NCBI GenBank assembly: GCA_963665815.1
Contig: OY762463.1
Span: 1,536,001-1,600,000, forward strand
From: Candidatus Cloacimonadales bacterium
GTDB taxonomy: Bacteria; Cloacimonadota; Cloacimonadia; Cloacimonadales; JAIOQZ01
Direction: 5' to 3'
Length of the DNA stretch: 64,000 nucleotides
Below the pieces are notes generated by a model. It had not been told where the DNA came from. It was given only the letters and a program-made list of their open reading frames with translations, and did no database searches. This document shows, one piece after another, positions 33,087 through 40,394 of the stretch. Position 1 is the stretch's first letter, and each line of letters begins with the position of its first letter. Both the position numbers and the translations under genes were made by a program.

Positions 33087-34415
33087 TCAATCTGATTCGT
33101 AATTATCAAAAATCAACTCACCGTCAACAATTGAATAAGAAACTTTTTCTCTCTGCTCAACAATATTTACTGATTTCTTCAGAATCCGCAGATATGTTCC
33201 CGGGAAAATCTTTTTAAAAGCTACAATGTGCTTCGGAGCTTCATCGCTTGCAAGCAATGCCTTGTTAATTGACTCCTCGAGCTTTTCTTCATAATCCTGA
33301 ATCAGTTTCTCTACTTTGCTTATCTTATCCGAATTTTCTCCCGGAGATTCCTTTAACTCACTGAGTTTCTTGGATAAAAGCATCATCCTTTCTTTAATAA
33401 AAGGACTTATTGTTATTTCAACTTCTGTTCCTGCTGCAGTGGAATTGCCGATTACAGCTGCTTCGATGTTTTCTCCAGCCTGTACAATACCACCAATTAT
33501 ACAACCCGTTTCCGGGTCTCCTGTTACTGCTTTTTCAGCAACAAGTTTGCAGAAGTTCACTTTGTCCGAAAAGTTTATATTACCTGCAGAATAAATATTT
33601 GAATGATCTGCAGATTGAAAAGTAATTGATTCAGAGGAATATACTCCACCTGATCTACAATTAAGAATGTCACCCTTAACATCTACTTTTCTTTCACATT
33701 GAATATGAGCATCATTAATGTCTCCGAAAACAGTCAATCTACCGGTAAGTTCAATCACAATCTTTTCTTTAATATTACCATTGACTGTCAGATTCCCATT
33801 CATGGAAAAATTGTCGTACTTTAAATCAAGATCATGATGTATAACAAAATTTGAGTATACATTCACTTTGCCATCTGCATCAATATATGGATAGCCGTCA
33901 TCATCAGCAATAAGTTGATGACTGTCAGCTGAGTAGGACACGCCTTCTCCAATGAACTGACTTATGAGGTCATCATCGTTGCTTTCAGTAACAATTTCTT
34001 TTCCCCAGATATCAATACCATTTTTAGAGAATCTTGTTATATAAATATGTGCCAGAGCTTCACCTCTGGAGACACACTCATAATCCTGAAGTTTTGCAAA
34101 GTCATCCTCAAAACCAGCAACATCAATGCTCAATTTCTCATCAAAGAGAAGTTGAAATTCTACCTGTGGTTTAACCGGTGCTTCGCCTTCTGCAATAAGG
34201 AAAGGAACATCAAACTCCTTCGGAATATACTTCATATTCGGGCTCAGGATTTCTTTGTCTATTCCTGCTTCATTCAATAACTGCACAATTTCAGTTTCAT
34301 CTATAAGATGATCTCTTTTGAATAAAGTCATATATGCTTCAGATCCATGATTCCTGATCTCAACCTTTATGAGACCTGATTCACTTAAAAATTCTTTTTC
34401 CATAGTACTATCCAT
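33087..34415 (-). CDS. FapA/DUF342-family protein
   Basis: IAEGEAPV, GIDIWGKEI, beta-helix repeats (GNLTVNGNI), IIGG, IFPGT. Confidence 0.85.
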   Translation of the reverse strand: MDSTMEKEFLSESGLIKVEIRNHGSEAYMTLFKRDHLIDETEIVQLLNEAGIDKEILSPNMKYIPKEFDVPFLIAEGEAPVKPQVEFQLLFDEKLSIDVAGFEDDFAKLQDYECVSRGEALAHIYITRFSKNGIDIWGKEIVTESNDDDLISQFIGEGVSYSADSHQLIADDDGYPYIDADGKVNVYSNFVIHHDLDLKYDNFSMNGNLTVNGNIKEKIVIELTGRLTVFGDINDAHIQCERKVDVKGDILNCRSGGVYSSESITFQSADHSNIYSAGNINFSDKVNFCKLVAEKAVTGDPETGCIIGGIVQAGENIEAAVIGNSTAAGTEVEITISPFIKERMMLLSKKLSELKESPGENSDKISKVEKLIQDYEEKLEESINKALLASDEAPKHIVAFKKIFPGTYLRILKKSVNIVEQREKVSYSIVDGELIFDNYESD

Positions 34416-35046
34416 TATTCTTCAAAGCAATAAAGCTGATTTGTCGTTGATCAGTTTTATCTCTTCTATATGAGTTAAATTTTATATCTTCGAAAGTACA
34501 AATTTCAATATCATCAATATTCTTTTTTGAAATACCATTTTGTAATAATTCATATTCAGCAGCAGCTTTCAAGTTAATCTTACAACCTGTCTGCTTCACT
34601 TCAGTGCATTCAACAAATCGATTGAAAGTCTTTTTATCAACTGAATAATGTTTTTCAGAAACAGCAGGTCCCAATACTGCAATAATATCATCAGAATCTG
34701 TGTTATATTCTTCTTCCATTGCAGAAATAGTTTTTGTCAAAATGTGTTTTTCCAGTCCTGCTCTACCACAATGAACCGCTGCAACCACTTTTTTTCGGGA
34801 ATCGTAAAGAAGAATCGGAATACAGTCTGCTGTTTTAACGCATAACTTAATATTTTTCACCTGCGTTACTAACGAATCGCATTCTTTGACATCAAAATTA
34901 CTTTTTATTATATTAATATCATTCCCATGAACCTGTTTCATAATCACAGTATTCTTATCTGAGACTAACAAGTCAAAGTCATTTCTGTTACCAAAACCAT
35001 GCTCAATAACATCACTGAAATCCGCTAAAAGATCAGAACAGAGCAT
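34408..35046 (-). CDS. pgeF: PgeF/YfiH laccase-domain protein (purine nucleoside phosphorylase-like)
   Basis: QVHG, TADCIPILL, AVHCGR, CT...SYRRD. Confidence 0.92.
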   Translation of the reverse strand: MLCSDLLADFSDVIEHGFGNRNDFDLLVSDKNTVIMKQVHGNDINIIKSNFDVKECDSLVTQVKNIKLCVKTADCIPILLYDSRKKVVAAVHCGRAGLEKHILTKTISAMEEEYNTDSDDIIAVLGPAVSEKHYSVDKKTFNRFVECTEVKQTGCKINLKAAAEYELLQNGISKKNIDDIEICTFEDIKFNSYRRDKTDQRQISFIALKNNG

Positions 35047-35051
35047 AATAT

Positions 35052-36056
35052 TTAGAATGATTCGTCATCAGAATCATCGTTAAACATGACCATTTTAGTA
35101 TTTCCGCCATATTCATCAAACTGGAATGAACCTGAATGCTTAAATTTATCAAGAATTGTTTTTATCCGGTCAACAGCATCTTCAACCCGAGCAATATACT
35201 TCTTGTTCTGATCCGAAATTGTTTCAGGTGAAGATGTTAACTGAAGCATTTCCAAGTTGCCCTTAATAATCATCAATGGCTGATTAATCTCGTGATTAGC
35301 CGTAACGGCCATTGCAAGAACAGAACTTTTTCGTTCAAGACTTAGAATTTCTTCCTGGGCTTCTCTGAGCTGCTTGTAAGACTGCTTCAATCCGAGTTCT
35401 GCTTTCACTCGTTCGTCAATATCAACCAGAATACCAATTATCGAAGAAATATTTCCACGATTATCAAAGATCGCTGAAACGGAATAATCCACCCAGAAAT
35501 ACTTACCATTCTTTTTAACAACACGTTTTTGTATTCTGTAATGATCTATTTTACCATCAACTATTTTCCTGAAATAGAAAGAGCACTGCTCCTGATCATC
35601 AGGATGAGTCACATCCAGAATTTTCTTTTCATATATCTCTGCTTCCGTATAACCAAGCATATCCAGAAAATTGTTGTTTACAAAACTGTATTTTCCTCTG
35701 ATATCAACTTTTTCTATCCCGACAACAGCGTTATCGAATATAGCTCTCAAATTGCTTTCCTGTTCTTCAAGGCGCTCAAGAGCAAGAATTTTCTCCTGAT
35801 GTTCAGATTCAAGATTCTCCTGAACACGAATGAGTTTCATCTGAGCAGCATCACCTACTTTGGTGACCTTCATCATTTTTCTGAGAAGCTTGTAATACTG
35901 CCTGTGGATTTCTCCTGCAAAGGATTTGAAATCATCATCATCCTGCATTGTCTCCAGTTGCTTCAGGAAGTTAGAGTAAATATCATATTCTTTTCTGAAA
36001 AACTTTTTTATCTCATGATCTTTGTTATCTTCATCATGAATGAAACTGTTATCCAT
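35052..36056 (-). CDS. SiaD-like N-terminal helix + PAS/PAC + HisKA dimerisation domain, with no ATPase domain
   Basis: YYKLLRKMMKVTKVGDAAQ; PAS (VNNNFLDMLGY, THPDD, VDIDERV); ANHEINQPL; protein ends about 75 aa after the His. Confidence 0.8.
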   Translation of the reverse strand: MDNSFIHDEDNKDHEIKKFFRKEYDIYSNFLKQLETMQDDDDFKSFAGEIHRQYYKLLRKMMKVTKVGDAAQMKLIRVQENLESEHQEKILALERLEEQESNLRAIFDNAVVGIEKVDIRGKYSFVNNNFLDMLGYTEAEIYEKKILDVTHPDDQEQCSFYFRKIVDGKIDHYRIQKRVVKKNGKYFWVDYSVSAIFDNRGNISSIIGILVDIDERVKAELGLKQSYKQLREAQEEILSLERKSSVLAMAVTANHEINQPLMIIKGNLEMLQLTSSPETISDQNKKYIARVEDAVDRIKTILDKFKHSGSFQFDEYGGNTKMVMFNDDSDDESF

Positions 36057-36068
36057 ATATACTCCGAA

Positions 36069-36443
36069 TTAATATTCGATAAGGTCATAACTGAAATTCA
36101 TATCTTCCAGCAGCTCTTCCCCTGACTCAAGTATTTCTTCATCATCTTCTTCATAATACCATGCCACATGAACCGATCCGCCGACTTCGTGATACCCGTC
36201 AAGAATCTCAAAAAAATCAAGCAGACACTTTGAAGAACTACTATTTAGATAGTTCAGTTTAACCTTTATTTGTAAAGATTTTTTTACCTTCTCTACATAT
36301 TCTTCAATCCAATCATTTAAAGGCTCAAAGAAATTTATTGCATCTTCGGGATAAGAATTACCACTCATTTTCAGAATACCTGATTCAACGTCAAAATTGA
36401 CTTCCATGGTATATTTTGTTCCATCTATTTGTAAATTCTTCAT
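36069..36443 (-). CDS. siaC: SiaC-family (DUF1987) phosphoswitch protein
   Basis: GNSYPEDA, LNYLNSSSSK, VAWYYEEDDE; ATG at 36443 overlaps the siaB stop (ATGA). Confidence 0.9.
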   Translation of the reverse strand: MKNLQIDGTKYTMEVNFDVESGILKMSGNSYPEDAINFFEPLNDWIEEYVEKVKKSLQIKVKLNYLNSSSSKCLLDFFEILDGYHEVGGSVHVAWYYEEDDEEILESGEELLEDMNFSYDLIEY

Positions 36444-37009
36444 GCACATTCCTTTTCAAGTAAAATAAAGAAGCTGACAAACGAATGTTCATCATCAATC
36501 GGCTTTACTTTAACTTCCAGAGGTCCGGACGATTTTCTTACAATATCAATTAAACCGAGCCCTGCACCACGTTGTCCTGCATCCCTGTTTGCTTTCATTT
36601 TCTCTTTTCTCATTACTTTTAACTCATCCGGAGAAAGCGAGTTAAGATAAGTAAACTGTTCAGTTATCCATTTTTCCTTTTCTTTAGTAACAACATTTCC
36701 GGAAATTATATGATATGATTCGGCATATTCATTAACGAGAACAATGCCGGAACCTATCAGTTTTCCGTCAACTTCGTACTTTTCCTCTGAATAACGGTGG
36801 ATATTCTGAGCAAGTTCAACAAATATTGAAAACATTTTCTTTGTTGTTTTTCTTTTCGAATCATTAGACAGATTATTCTTAAGCATTTCTGCAAGAACAA
36901 CCAGAATATCTTGAGTCAATATACCTTTAAACATGAGTATAGTTTTTGCTAACTCAACATGCGAATATAGTTTAAACAAATATGAATCATTATCATTTCT
37001 CTGATCCAT
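36440..37009 (-). CDS. siaB: SiaB-family protein kinase (DUF6272)
   Basis: FSIFVELAQNIHRY, SGN, GAGLGLIDIVRKS. Confidence 0.9.
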   Translation of the reverse strand: MDQRNDNDSYLFKLYSHVELAKTILMFKGILTQDILVVLAEMLKNNLSNDSKRKTTKKMFSIFVELAQNIHRYSEEKYEVDGKLIGSGIVLVNEYAESYHIISGNVVTKEKEKWITEQFTYLNSLSPDELKVMRKEKMKANRDAGQRGAGLGLIDIVRKSSGPLEVKVKPIDDEHSFVSFFILLEKECA

Positions 37010-37082
37010 GCGAACTCCTTATAAGACGTTTTCATATTAAGTCAGGTCTTTTGTCAACCTAACTCTCACAAATATTTATAAT

Positions 37083-40000
37083 TTAATCTTTTTTTATTCT
37101 GATTCCGACGATAGTAATATCATCTCTCTGCTTTTCAGATCCCTTATGTCTTGATAGTGCTTTATTAATTTTTTCTGACTGAATGGACATATCTCTTTCG
37201 TATAACGAAACAAGTAGATCCTTCAATTTACGGGAACCGAATTTCTTGTTATCCGAGTTTGCCTGATCAACATATCCATCGGTTGTCAGATAGAATATAT
37301 CATTATTTTCCAGTGTAATATCAGTATTTGAATACTTTCTTTCCTTTTTCCTGCTGCGACCACCAATTCCTTTTCGGGAGCATTTTATTGTATCAAATTC
37401 AATATGTCCATTACGTTTTCTTACTGCATAAAGAGGTCTGCCTGCACCGGCAAAACATAATGAGTTCCTATTCTTATCAAGTCTTACCAGACATACTTCC
37501 ATACCATCAATAGCTTCTGCGTTATCATTAGTCTGTTTTAGAATACGCTGCATATCCTGATGCATTTTCAACAGAATCTCCGCAGGATCAAAAATTCTTT
37601 CCTGACGAATAATTTCTGTGAGAAGCATGTGTCCTATAACTGATAAAAGAGCTCCTGGAACACCATGGCCTGTACAATCAACTACAACCAGAAAATCGTA
37701 ATCGTCAATCTCTGTTGACCAGTAAAAATCACCAGCAATAATATCTCGTGGTTTATAACATACAAAGCACTCGGAATACTGTTGATTAATTCTCTCTTGC
37801 TGTGGCAGGAAAGCATGTTGAATACGCTCGGAATATCTGATGCTGCTCATAATCTGTTCGTTTTTCTCTTTTACTTCAGCAGTTCTGACAGAAACTTCTT
37901 TTTCAAGTTCCTCAGTTCTTTTCTGCAATGCTTTTGTTCTCTGTCTGAATATTGCTATCACTATCAGAACAGCAGCTGCAATTTCAAACAGAATAAACCA
38001 TATTGTTTTCCAGAAAGGCGGATTAACCTTAAGAGGAATTCTCAGTACTTCACTCTCATTACCTGACATATCAATTGCTTTAAGCATAAACACATAGTGT
38101 CCGGCATTAAGGTTTGTATACCTGATTTTTCTCTCTTCTGTTTTGTCTGACCAGAAACTGTCAAAGTTCAGAAGCTGATATTGAAAACGGACATTCTCAG
38201 GATTTTTATAATCAAGAGCAATAAACTCAAAGGTTAGATTATTATTATCATAGTTAAAAACATATTCTTCATCACTCAATTTTTCCGGGACACCTTTGTC
38301 TGCAGCAAAATTAGTCAATATTACAACCGGTGGAATTGTATCAATAACAACTACTTCCGGATCTATTGTCATAACACCGAAAGAAGAAGAAAACCAAAGT
38401 TTTCCTTCCCTGTCTTTATAAGCTCCGGTTGTTCTGGTTGCATTGGCAATCATTCCGTCCACTTCAGAATAATACGTGTACCTTTCTCCGTCATACTCAT
38501 AAATACCGTTAATTGTACCTATCCATATATGACCATTATCATCCTTGACAAGCGATTTGATAATTTCCGCATTTTCAAAAGGTTCTTTTATCATTTCTGT
38601 ATATGTTTTGCTTTTCTTGTTGAAAACAGCTATTCCTTCACCATAAGTTGCACACCAGATATTTTCTTCATCTATTGAAACAAGACCTACCATTGTTGAT
38701 GTAAAGTATTTCGAGTCAGGACTGTATTCATTCAGAATCTGACCCTGTTTATTCATCTGGATCAAACCTTTGTCGGCTGATGCCATCCAGAGATATCCAT
38801 CCTTATCTTCCTCTATCTGATATATCCCGTAATCCTCACCAAGATCATATACTTTATACCTGTTTCCGTAGAATTTGATCATTTTATCATCACGTTGAGC
38901 CCAGACGCTGCCATCAGAATCAGTAAAAATTTCAGTAACATAAGATGTTGATTCATCCAGTTCGCGAGGAACTCTGTTTACAAATTTTCTCCCATTGAAA
39001 GAGTGTATTCCTCCGTTATATGTACCGACCCAGATTACATTGTTGTGATCAATATCAAGTGCCCAGGCATCATTATGAGTAATTCCATCCCCTGTATTAT
39101 ATGTTTTTATTGATCCATCTTTCATAATTCTGGCAATACCATCATCTGTGGATACCCAGTAACTGCCGTCCTTTCCTTCAACAATGTTATTTGTTCCGGA
39201 ACTAGGTAGCCCATTGATTATCGTATAATTGGATATCTTCCCTCTGTTCATTTTATCAATTCCTGCCCCATTTGTTCCAAGCCAGATATTCTCTTCCCTG
39301 TCGATGAACATCACATTTATATTGTTATTGGAAAAACCATTAGATGTAGTATAAAGACGAGTATCTCCTGTTGCCAGATCACAGGAAAACAATCCTTCCG
39401 AACTTGAAAACAATAATTCGTTTGAAAACACCAGAGCATTTCTGATTACTGCATCTTTGAAAATCTTGTGTCTGATTCTTGTCTTAAGCTTTTCAATTTT
39501 CAAAGTACGAAGATCAAAAGCATAAAGTACCCCATTTTTATCATACATCCATACCCTGTCTTTGTAATCATGAAAAATTTCATTCTTATCCCAGGTATGG
39601 ATAAAGTCACTGTCTGTTGTTTTCAGAAATTCTTTAAAAATTCCCTTCCCCGGATTACAGTATGTCCAGACATTCATTTTTGTATCAGAATCAACTATGT
39701 AATGAAAATACACTGAATCACCATACTGTATGAAGCCTGAATAATCATCTTCATTGTATGAAGTAGCAAAATTCTTTTTATGCCATTCAACAAATTCTTT
39801 TTTACCCAGATCAATCATATATGAATATGTCTTTGCTTCTCTTGTAACATATAATTGTATAATTTCTTTTGTCAGAAATATAACCGATACACTTTCATCC
39901 ACATCTATGCCCATTCCTTCAAAATTAAGAATGGAATCAAATGATTTTGAGTTGTGATTGTATTTCCTGATTTCTCTGGAGGTTGTAACATATACATTAA

Positions 40001-40394
40001 TATAGTTTGAGTCAGATTCTGTAGCAATATCAATAATCTCTTCTTTGAATTCCGTACTGAAATAATTCTGATCATACCTGAAAGAATGATTATTATCCAT
40101 AACTGAAAATGACTCTGAGCCTATGAAATACAGTATTCCATCGTCATCATACATTCTACTGAGAGCATTTTCTGTCAAACCATTGGCAATAGTATAATTT
40201 TCGAAATGCCGACCGTCAAACTTACTGGCTCCCCCCTGGGTTAAAAACCAGATGAATCCTTCTTTATCTTTGTAAATATCCAGAATCTGGTTCTGAGTAA
40301 GTCCATCTTTTGTGTTATAATTTTTCACAGGCAGCATCTGCCCCATCAGACTTGCAACAATGAAACAGAGAGTTATTGTAAGTATTAGACGCAT
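37083..40394 (-). CDS. Membrane sensor phosphatase: periplasmic propeller repeats + Y_Y_Y + TM + SpoIIE/PP2C (SiaA equivalent)
   Basis: Repeated DxEGxIWxGT/GL units; YTNLNAGHYVF; PPFWKTIWF; DCTGHGVPGA, TDGYVDQ, QRDDIT. Confidence 0.9.
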   Translation of the reverse strand: MRLILTITLCFIVASLMGQMLPVKNYNTKDGLTQNQILDIYKDKEGFIWFLTQGGASKFDGRHFENYTIANGLTENALSRMYDDDGILYFIGSESFSVMDNNHSFRYDQNYFSTEFKEEIIDIATESDSNYINVYVTTSREIRKYNHNSKSFDSILNFEGMGIDVDESVSVIFLTKEIIQLYVTREAKTYSYMIDLGKKEFVEWHKKNFATSYNEDDYSGFIQYGDSVYFHYIVDSDTKMNVWTYCNPGKGIFKEFLKTTDSDFIHTWDKNEIFHDYKDRVWMYDKNGVLYAFDLRTLKIEKLKTRIRHKIFKDAVIRNALVFSNELLFSSSEGLFSCDLATGDTRLYTTSNGFSNNNINVMFIDREENIWLGTNGAGIDKMNRGKISNYTIINGLPSSGTNNIVEGKDGSYWVSTDDGIARIMKDGSIKTYNTGDGITHNDAWALDIDHNNVIWVGTYNGGIHSFNGRKFVNRVPRELDESTSYVTEIFTDSDGSVWAQRDDKMIKFYGNRYKVYDLGEDYGIYQIEEDKDGYLWMASADKGLIQMNKQGQILNEYSPDSKYFTSTMVGLVSIDEENIWCATYGEGIAVFNKKSKTYTEMIKEPFENAEIIKSLVKDDNGHIWIGTINGIYEYDGERYTYYSEVDGMIANATRTTGAYKDREGKLWFSSSFGVMTIDPEVVVIDTIPPVVILTNFAADKGVPEKLSDEEYVFNYDNNNLTFEFIALDYKNPENVRFQYQLLNFDSFWSDKTEERKIRYTNLNAGHYVFMLKAIDMSGNESEVLRIPLKVNPPFWKTIWFILFEIAAAVLIVIAIFRQRTKALQKRTEELEKEVSVRTAEVKEKNEQIMSSIRYSERIQHAFLPQQERINQQYSECFVCYKPRDIIAGDFYWSTEIDDYDFLVVVDCTGHGVPGALLSVIGHMLLTEIIRQERIFDPAEILLKMHQDMQRILKQTNDNAEAIDGMEVCLVRLDKNRNSLCFAGAGRPLYAVRKRNGHIEFDTIKCSRKGIGGRSRKKERKYSNTDITLENNDIFYLTTDGYVDQANSDNKKFGSRKLKDLLVSLYERDMSIQSEKINKALSRHKGSEKQRDDITIVGIRIKKD

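Follow-up and report, generated by a model that had tools for sequence, protein, structure and literature searches.

A four-gene cluster in a 64,000-nt stretch of DNA from a Candidatus Cloacimonadales bacterium (hereafter the window; C1:1536001-1600000 of the complete, 3.96-Mb source genome G000) probably encodes a partner switch of the SiaABC type whose output is a sensor protein lacking a catalytic domain, here called P4, instead of the diguanylate cyclase SiaD; we put the probability of this reading at about 55%. The genes, siaA-like, siaB, siaC and P4, lie tightly packed and co-oriented on the minus strand, and open reading frame (ORF) analysis together with Pfam and NCBIfam scans recovered all four that the original prediction had listed. 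P4 combines a predicted SiaC-docking stalk with a PAS domain and a C-terminal DHp bundle that carries a phospho-acceptor His.

The products of the first three genes can be assigned to the Sia families. The siaA-like protein comprises, in order, a signal/transmembrane (TM) segment, Reg_prop propellers (86 bits), a Y_Y_Y domain (52 bits), a TM segment and a C-terminal PP2C (SpoIIE) domain (79 bits). It scores 202 bits against the NCBIfam SiaA model NF038263, below the cut-off of 700, because only its C-terminal part matches (286 residues, 815-1100) and the sensor part differs. Its last 300 residues match the PP2C domain of Pseudomonas aeruginosa SiaA (6k4e) with an E-value of 1.6e-41, as expected for a PP2C phosphatase of the SiaA type. 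The siaB product (NF038262, 160 bits against a cut-off of 85; DUF6272, 132 bits; SiaB chain 6kko_A, E 1.2e-16) falls within the SiaB kinase family and scores 97 against the SiaB equivalog NF038264, under the cut-off of 225. The siaC product belongs to the SiaC/DUF1987 family (PF09345, 136 bits) and aligns gap-free with P. aeruginosa SiaC (6k4f/7e6g, E 8e-23), with a score of 116 against the SiaC equivalog NF038265 (cut-off 150). Each is the sole match of its kind (DUF6272 and SiaC, respectively) in the genome. Ser70 of the siaC product aligns with Thr68, the phosphorylated residue of P. aeruginosa SiaC, for which PMC7647112 gives the site and its peptide. The surrounding YxNSSSSK is invariant in 12 siaC orthologues, and the protein is of the DUF1987 type with a phosphorylatable residue in the Y-L-N-T-S-S loop.

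P4 differs from SiaD at its output end. At E ≤ 0.01, Pfam and NCBIfam scans detect neither a GGDEF nor a HATPase domain in P4, and Pfam no Hpt family match. The N-terminal ~95 residues match no family in either collection; the PAS domain follows, and then a HisKA match (PF00512, residues 253-305, 33.2 bits, cut-off 26.9) with His255 in its H-box and 79 residues C-terminal of it. P4 thus possesses the DHp domain with phospho-acceptor His of a histidine kinase and lacks the ATP-binding catalytic domain, as it lacks the GGDEF cyclase that is the output of SiaABCD. The original prediction had placed exactly such a protein, PAS plus His-containing DHp with no GGDEF or HATPase, in the position of the cyclase behind siaABC, and this is borne out; the strings that it quoted, YYKLLRKMMKVTKVGDAAQ (residues 54-72) and ANHEINQPL (residues 253-261), are found in the P4 translation. 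In the full-length AlphaFold2 (AF2) monomer of P4, the PAS domain has a predicted local distance difference test score (pLDDT) of ~90, and the DHp and tail are of low confidence.

The gene order is conserved. Full-length matches to P4 occur in 12 of 232 Cloacimonadota genomes including G000 (families f1, f13 and f5), and all named homologues belong to this phylum. In all 12 genomes siaB-siaC lie directly upstream of P4, and the end of siaA is visible at 11 of the 12 loci, gyrA preceding siaB in G102. The genes 3' of P4 vary: pgeF-fapA in G000 and G119, kdtA in G194 and maf in G102. Because the upstream genes are constant and the downstream genes differ between families, the conserved unit is siaA-B-C-P4, and the recurrence of siaB-siaC-P4 in all 12 genomes is not a matter of chance. 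In the window, the siaB stop and the siaC start overlap as ATGA if siaC begins at Met3, 12 nt separate the siaC stop from the P4 start, and a GGAG precedes P4. The P4 stop is followed after 5 nt by the start of pgeF, which leaves no room for a catalytic domain behind P4. Scans for promoters (36 promoter-like sites versus 35.5 expected) and terminators (4 terminator-like sites versus 3.3 expected) were uninformative.

The stalk of P4 has residues that in SiaD contact SiaC. According to PMC8457831, the SiaD stalk bears two SiaC-binding motifs, contacts are made by R74, K77, V78, R80, I81, S82, D83, R84, Y85, Q86, M88, R90 and D91, and Thr68 of SiaC fits in between S82 and Q86. P4 presents K60, K63, V64, K66, V67, G68, D69, A70, A71 and Q72 at matching spacing, and with a constant offset of 14 its conserved residues land on the contacts K77, D83, Q86, V78 and S82 reported there. 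K63, D69 and Q72 are invariant among 21 P4 orthologues, and Y54, Y55, K56, I64, T65 and G68 nearly so. When a profile built from 21 N-termini of siaC-linked proteins (A7) was searched against the whole PDB, SiaD (7e6g_A) was the top match (E 2.4e-5, 27.6 bits) with both published motifs aligned; the second match had an E-value of 0.092. A hidden Markov model (HMM) of residues 12-82, made from Cloacimonadota P4 orthologues only, finds P4 alone among the 10,282 ORFs of G000 (next E-value 0.22). The output protein of this locus therefore carries a putative SiaC-binding stalk motif, as does that of SiaABCD.

To complement the sequence comparison, a complex of two P4(1-110) and two SiaC copies was modelled alongside three controls, as the original prediction had suggested. 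The complex scored 0.77 and the best control 0.39, and the model passed a score mark that 116 of 157 solved complexes attain, as do 2 of 215 mismatched pairs. At least 95% of the contacts agree between runs, with a partner pLDDT of at least 91. The modelled interface comprises residues 18-22, 59-60 and 63-76 of P4 and residues 67-71 (the phosphosite loop), 73-74, 77-78 and 103-116 of SiaC, that is, the stalk motif packed against the phosphosite loop together with helices 2 and 3, which agrees with the published complex. The model supports SiaC-P4 binding, without proving it, and together with the stalk comparison makes docking of unphosphorylated SiaC on the P4 stalk a well-supported prediction.

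The last ~105 residues of P4, termed DHp*, define a protein module of their own. Its consensus reads ...LERKxxALAMAVTANHEINQPLMxxxGNLEML...RIxxIL...F..Y.....MV.F. A coiled coil leads into helix 1, which bears His255; helix 2 and a short beta-hairpin tail (F-x-x-Y...M-V-x-F) follow, and the end is acidic. An AF2 model of the module (mean pLDDT 80.8) has helices at 2-50 and 58-83 and the hairpin at 87-92/96-101. Foldseek relates it to the DHp domains of FixL chimeras, GacS, RetS, CpxA and EnvZ, all weakly (best E 0.036); the nearest solved sequences are likewise kinase DHp domains (best LvrB, E 9.5e-7). The nearest clusters in the ESM Atlas are ~100-aa HisKA-only proteins, which serve as leads only.

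In G000 the module ends 14 proteins including P4, none of which continues into a HATPase. The paralogous modules are 31-47% identical to that of P4, and a tblastn search with the module gives 14 matches of 57-226 bits, none adjoining a HATPase match; further matches, ordinary kinases among them, stay below 29 bits. The inputs preceding the module are TPR (5 proteins), dCache (2), GAF, CHASE, Reg_prop/Y_Y_Y-PAS, REC, REC-PAS, a complete HAMP-HisKA-HATPase-REC kinase and, in P4, the SiaC stalk-PAS. Beyond this genome, the module profile has 1025 matches at E ≤ 1e-10 among 1.84 billion cluster representatives. In the best 150 of these, the His lies no more than 110 residues from the C-terminus in 148, and 149 carry the H-box H[ED][ILVM]x[QN]PL; across the 150, His, Gln, Pro and Leu of the box are invariant and Glu and Asn near-invariant. 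The two C-terminal exceptions are P0227, which is the g2 fusion described below, and P0319, whose REC-PAS-DHp* part is followed by a repeat-like C-terminus that is not a kinase. HisKA is found in 105 of the first 108 of the best 150, TPR_12 in 45, PAS_9 in 24 and REC in 19; the 25 most frequent families, the last of which has 5 members, do not include HATPase_c. Family members are currently annotated as 'PAS domain S-box protein', 'tetratricopeptide repeat protein' or 'response regulator', which hides the shared module.

DHp* is confined to some families of Cloacimonadota. At E ≤ 1e-12 it occurs in 30 of the 232 genomes, comprising every genome of f1 (7/7), f13 (9/9) and f7 (5/5), one of 62 in f12 and none in f3 (0/98) or f17 (0/21); against the 14 copies in G000, genus g2 has at least 20. 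Three TPR-DHp* genes stand in tandem in two further genomes (G118:C1 ~3150600-3153900 and G116:C4 ~2362800-2366100), a sign of recent local expansion. Within G000, one DHp* gene lies two genes after an NtrC-type regulator and one directly after an HDOD gene and a PAS kinase gene.

P4 is not a recently truncated kinase. Metagenomes supply 15 orthologues of like build (320-337 aa, 37-92% identical), and all of them lack a HATPase. The original prediction had allowed that close homologues might all carry this domain, which would make P4 a recent truncation. Recent truncation of a kinase is ruled out by these orthologues, by the 14 paralogues and by the 148 of 150 representatives. A HATPase does occur behind the orthologue of one genus, g2 (G115, G116 and G118), which runs on into PAS-PAS-HisKA-HATPase in a single 845-867-aa frame with no stops. 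This form is a second complete kinase core fused behind an intact DHp* module, not a DHp-catalytic unit.

These observations lead us to the following model. SiaA, lying in the membrane with its propeller/Y_Y_Y sensor facing outward, would dephosphorylate SiaC through its PP2C domain, and SiaB would phosphorylate SiaC on Ser70. Unphosphorylated SiaC would dock 2:2 on the P4 stalk at residues ~59-76, aided by 18-22, in the way SiaC clamps the SiaD stalk, and docking would stabilise or re-register the parallel coiled coil of P4. The PAS domain and then the coiled-coil linker would relay the change to the four-helix bundle of the C-terminal DHp. As the original prediction proposed, the output would then be His phosphotransfer or response-regulator dephosphorylation: P4, unable to autophosphorylate, most likely acts on a response regulator through its DHp (His-Glu-x-Asn-Gln-Pro-Leu), with a SiaC-gated phosphatase of a phosphorylated regulator as the first choice and a Spo0B/ChpT-like phosphotransfer step as the second. 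The DHp of EnvZ, when isolated, acts as a phosphatase, and a separate catalytic domain can phosphorylate it in trans. Since DHp* also ends 13 other sensor proteins of G000, P4 would be one input of a many-sensor network, probably converging on one partner. TPR, dCache, CHASE, GAF, Reg_prop/Y_Y_Y, REC and PAS inputs fit a regulated transmitter, and such typical sensor inputs in combination with an invariant H-box suggest a regulated activity of the His site towards a shared partner. We infer the direction of regulation, the choice between phosphatase and phosphotransfer and the identity of the partner; phosphatase, phosphotransfer and kinase inhibition are all candidates for the biochemical role of DHp*.

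Several observations weigh against this model. The likeness of the N-terminal helix to SiaD, which the original prediction had proposed, holds through profile A7 and the shared contact residues and fails in a single-sequence search, where the first 90 residues of P4 alone retrieve no SiaD from the PDB at E ≤ 10. The score of the modelled complex may reflect the SiaC-SiaD structure (7e6g), which is already solved, so that the pass shows likeness and not binding; one control scored as high as 0.39. No partner response regulator was found, and no gene recurs in the neighbourhoods of the other 13 DHp* genes. Other points bear on the phosphatase as first choice. The classical HisKA phosphatase motif has Thr or Asn at His+4, where DHp* has Gln. 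Fusion to PAS-PAS-HisKA-HATPase in g2 fits phosphorylation of the DHp* His in trans or in cis better than a pure phosphatase, and phosphotransfer is favoured over phosphatase both by the paralogue in which the module follows HisKA-HATPase-REC, in the place of an HPt, and by the 82 REC versus 2 HPt matches in G000.

The strongest alternative, a real possibility though less probable than the SiaC-gated phosphatase, casts P4 and the remaining DHp* proteins as histidine phosphotransferases, HPt stand-ins like Spo0B or ChpT, which would pass phosphoryl groups from hybrid-kinase REC domains via His255 to a terminal regulator under control by SiaC. The paralogue just mentioned (G000:C1:1045111-1048617, plus strand, 1168 aa) has a sensor-HAMP-HisKA-HATPase-REC arrangement with DHp* where the HPt usually stands. 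REC-DHp* and REC-PAS-DHp* forms are common (REC in 19 of the 108 representatives), the His and its box are invariant, and the genome encodes many hybrid kinases and only two HPt matches, one within CheA and one in a 124-aa ORF at 2838470-2838664. Most family members, however, have sensor inputs (TPR, Cache, CHASE, GAF) and no REC, which is unusual for passive phosphotransfer, and the PAS between REC and DHp in REC-PAS-DHp* reads as regulation, not as donation in cis. The HPt count proves little, as many hybrid kinases can share a single HPt.

Trans-phosphorylation and RetS-like inhibition are both less likely than phosphatase or phosphotransfer. In the first, which we regard as unlikely, P4 would be the substrate half of a split kinase whose His is phosphorylated in trans (in g2 by the fused core) and then passes the phosphoryl group to a regulator. 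The g2 fusion is in keeping with this, and the trans-phosphorylation of isolated EnvZ DHp provides a precedent, yet no stand-alone catalytic partner was found among the HATPase matches of G000 that lack a HisKA match. These are kinases with an H-box of their own, CheA, an anti-sigma-type HATPase_c_2, an HD-CE protein and a 189-aa protein. The last, a stand-alone HATPase_c (G000:C1:3772338-3772907, minus strand), lies between NuoE-like and NuoF-like genes in a hydrogenase-type cluster and is by its context unrelated to the DHp* family. SiaB is improbable as a general trans-acting ATPase for 14 modules, being the single SiaB of the genome. Nor does the g2 fusion reveal a partner in the manner of a Rosetta stone, as its kinase half has no clear orthologue in G000, where the best match is 40% identical and covers the kinase core only.

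Less likely still is a RetS-like role, in which DHp* would form heterodimers with the DHp of a kinase or with another DHp* and block or redirect signalling with no chemistry at its own His. RetS and GacS DHp and their co-complex 7n0e are among the nearest folds (all Foldseek E-values at least 0.036), and 14 paralogous modules of 31-47% identity to that of P4 could heterodimerise. Against this, no complete kinase of G000 has a DHp of the DHp* type, the next tblastn matches falling below 29 bits, and H-box conservation across the 150 representatives argues that the His site is used. That P4 is a functionless, decaying kinase remnant placed beside siaABC by chance would account for the missing catalytic domain and is otherwise very improbable, given that orthologues at 33-92% identity keep the length, stalk motif, PAS, H-box and tail with no internal stop in any of them, that synteny extends to 12 of 12 genomes and that the module recurs in 1025 representatives.

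Table 1. Features of the siaABC-P4 cluster and its 3' neighbours (positions in the window)
Feature	Position	Strand	Size or residues	Remark
siaA-like	40394..37083	-	1103 aa	
siaB	37009..36440	-	189 aa	
siaC	36449..36069	-	126 aa	likely start Met3 at 36443
P4	36056..35052	-	334 aa	fourth gene of the cluster
P4, putative SiaC-docking stalk	35811..36023	-	residues 12-82	HMM, profile, model
P4, stalk core motif	35829-35882	-	residues 59-76	K-x-x-K-V-T-K-V-G-D-A-A-Q-x-K-L
P4, PAS domain	35397..35768	-	residues 97-220	TIGR00229 92 bits, PAS_3 65 bits
P4, DHp* module	35055..35384	-	residues 225-334	HisKA match
P4, His255 codon	35292-35294	-	residue 255	in ANHEINQPL
pgeF (peptidoglycan editing factor) and FapA-family gene overlapping its end	33087-35046	-		pair 3' of P4 only in G000 and same-genus G119

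The stalk is not limited to P4. We surveyed siaC loci in one genome per species by SiaC alignment and kept 80 loci, mostly Bacteroidota and with 1768 ORFs, of at least 596 relatives. The P4-derived HMM matches 13 ORFs at E ≤ 2e-4 and a fourteenth at 0.014, at 9 of the 80 loci and always at the N-terminus. All 13 matches head signalling proteins: GGDEF proteins (L035, L038 and L041), HisKA-HATPase kinases (L086 and L041), a HisKA-HATPase-REC-HPt protein (L038), a PAS-HisKA-HATPase kinase (L107), a 1482-aa hybrid kinase (L037), class III cyclases (L036, L069 and L073), a PP2C protein (L036) and a GAF protein with a SiaB-like end (L037). The last of these (L037:3732-4493, Bacterium UASB14) is a 254-aa ORF directly upstream of siaC, consisting of stalk, GAF-like stretch and DUF6272 end, and may be a SiaC-docked kinase or the result of a frame problem. 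At the other 71 loci, mostly of Bacteroidota, the fetched flanks contain no recognised stalk-bearing ORF; there, siaC often closes the run of co-oriented genes or is followed by unrelated genes, such as one for a DeoC-family aldolase.

Of the 232 Cloacimonadota genomes, 43 encode SiaC, with 46 matches in all; the gene after siaC was inspected at 30 of these matches. It is of the P4 type at 12 loci (fused to a kinase at three), encodes a stalk with a class III cyclase at 11, a stalk with a Cys-rich end (153-163 aa) at three, a 301-aa stalk-HATPase protein at two and a stalk-HisKA-HATPase-REC protein at one; at the remaining locus nothing recognisable follows. The stalk-class III adenylate/guanylate cyclases are ~320-390 aa long (L154 and L156-L165 in Cloacimonadota; L036, L069 and L073 in other phyla), and one of them carries a hemerythrin domain; in Cloacimonadota they are about as frequent as P4-type proteins. 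Their position by siaC suggests SiaC control of cAMP/cGMP synthesis. The Cys-rich proteins (C-x2-C ... H ... C-P-x-C; L139:1867-2328, L140 and L143, family f17) have no Pfam match. Because the same stalk heads GGDEF proteins, complete kinases, class III cyclases and PP2C near siaC, the ~60-aa stalk is, as judged from these alignments, a portable SiaC-docking module that is general across phyla. The wiring of SiaC to a kinase-type protein is not special to this locus: complete stalk kinases follow siaC in other phyla.

The docking helix is recognisable by sequence and heads at least five kinds of output near siaC, so that targets of SiaC switches should be predictable from genomes. DHp*, in turn, delimits a large sensor family that keeps a phospho-acceptor helix bundle and never an ATP-binding domain. 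If its members are regulated phosphatases or phosphotransferases, they offer a simple natural setting in which to study DHp chemistry uncoupled from autophosphorylation, as well as the cross-talk of Ser/Thr with His-Asp signalling. More tentatively, and with somewhat less than even confidence, we propose that some Cloacimonadota families possess a kinase-less branch of two-component signalling, in which up to 20 or more sensors per genome share a nearly identical DHp* and converge on one regulator as phosphatases or phosphotransferases, SiaABC feeds into His-Asp signalling, and the stalk acts as a general plug-in for cyclases, kinases, PP2C and Cys-rich proteins. In the literature covered, which excludes subscription journals, we found neither this wiring, nor any kinase-type output under SiaC control, nor the DHp* family described, and no catalytic-domain-less HisKA/DHp family is apparent from titles and the beginnings of abstracts. 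So far, SiaABCD has been described as the regulator of one P. aeruginosa diguanylate cyclase, an enzyme of biofilm signalling, and modulation of adjacent proteins by DUF1987 proteins has only been suggested (PMC8457831). Our data thus point to a SiaABC switch with a kinase-less, His-type output as an undescribed output for SiaABC.

The closest known system is SiaABCD of P. aeruginosa, with which the cluster shares a PP2C phosphatase, a SiaB-family kinase and a DUF1987 phosphoprotein in the same order (PMC8457831 and PMC7647112), a conserved phosphosite loop (YLN-S/T-SS) and, in the predicted model, 2:2 docking via the same SiaC surfaces as in the published SiaC-SiaD complex (phosphosite loop, helices 2 and 3). 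It differs in that the output is a PAS domain with a catalytic-domain-less DHp where SiaD has GGDEF, in that P4 shows one recognisable docking motif and SiaD two, in that the acceptor of SiaC is Ser and not Thr, in the Reg_prop/Y_Y_Y propellers of the SiaA sensor part and in SiaC and SiaA equivalog scores under the cut-offs. P4 also resembles HisKA kinases with a FixL/NtrB-like H-box (LvrB 8vc9, HK853 4jas and YF1 4gcz) in its DHp hairpin with HEINQPL, preceded by PAS and coiled coil. Unlike these, DHp* has no HATPase_c, ends ~75 residues after the His in a predicted beta-hairpin and forms a sequence cluster of its own, well apart from the kinases of the same genome. A DHp-like bundle that works without its own ATP-dependent autophosphorylation is known from Spo0B, ChpT and RetS-GacS. 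Spo0B and ChpT are not known to have sensor inputs and retain a catalytic-like domain in degenerate form, and RetS retains its catalytic domain; we found no sequence relationship of DHp* to Spo0B, ChpT or RetS in this analysis. Partner switches with non-sigma outputs, HsbR-HsbA-HsbD and BgrSTUWV-BgrR, are cited in PMC8457831 and are alike in that a phosphorylatable antagonist-like protein governs a signalling enzyme by direct binding; those systems use STAS proteins and diguanylate cyclases, whereas the switch described here would couple a DUF1987 protein to a module of the His-Asp type.

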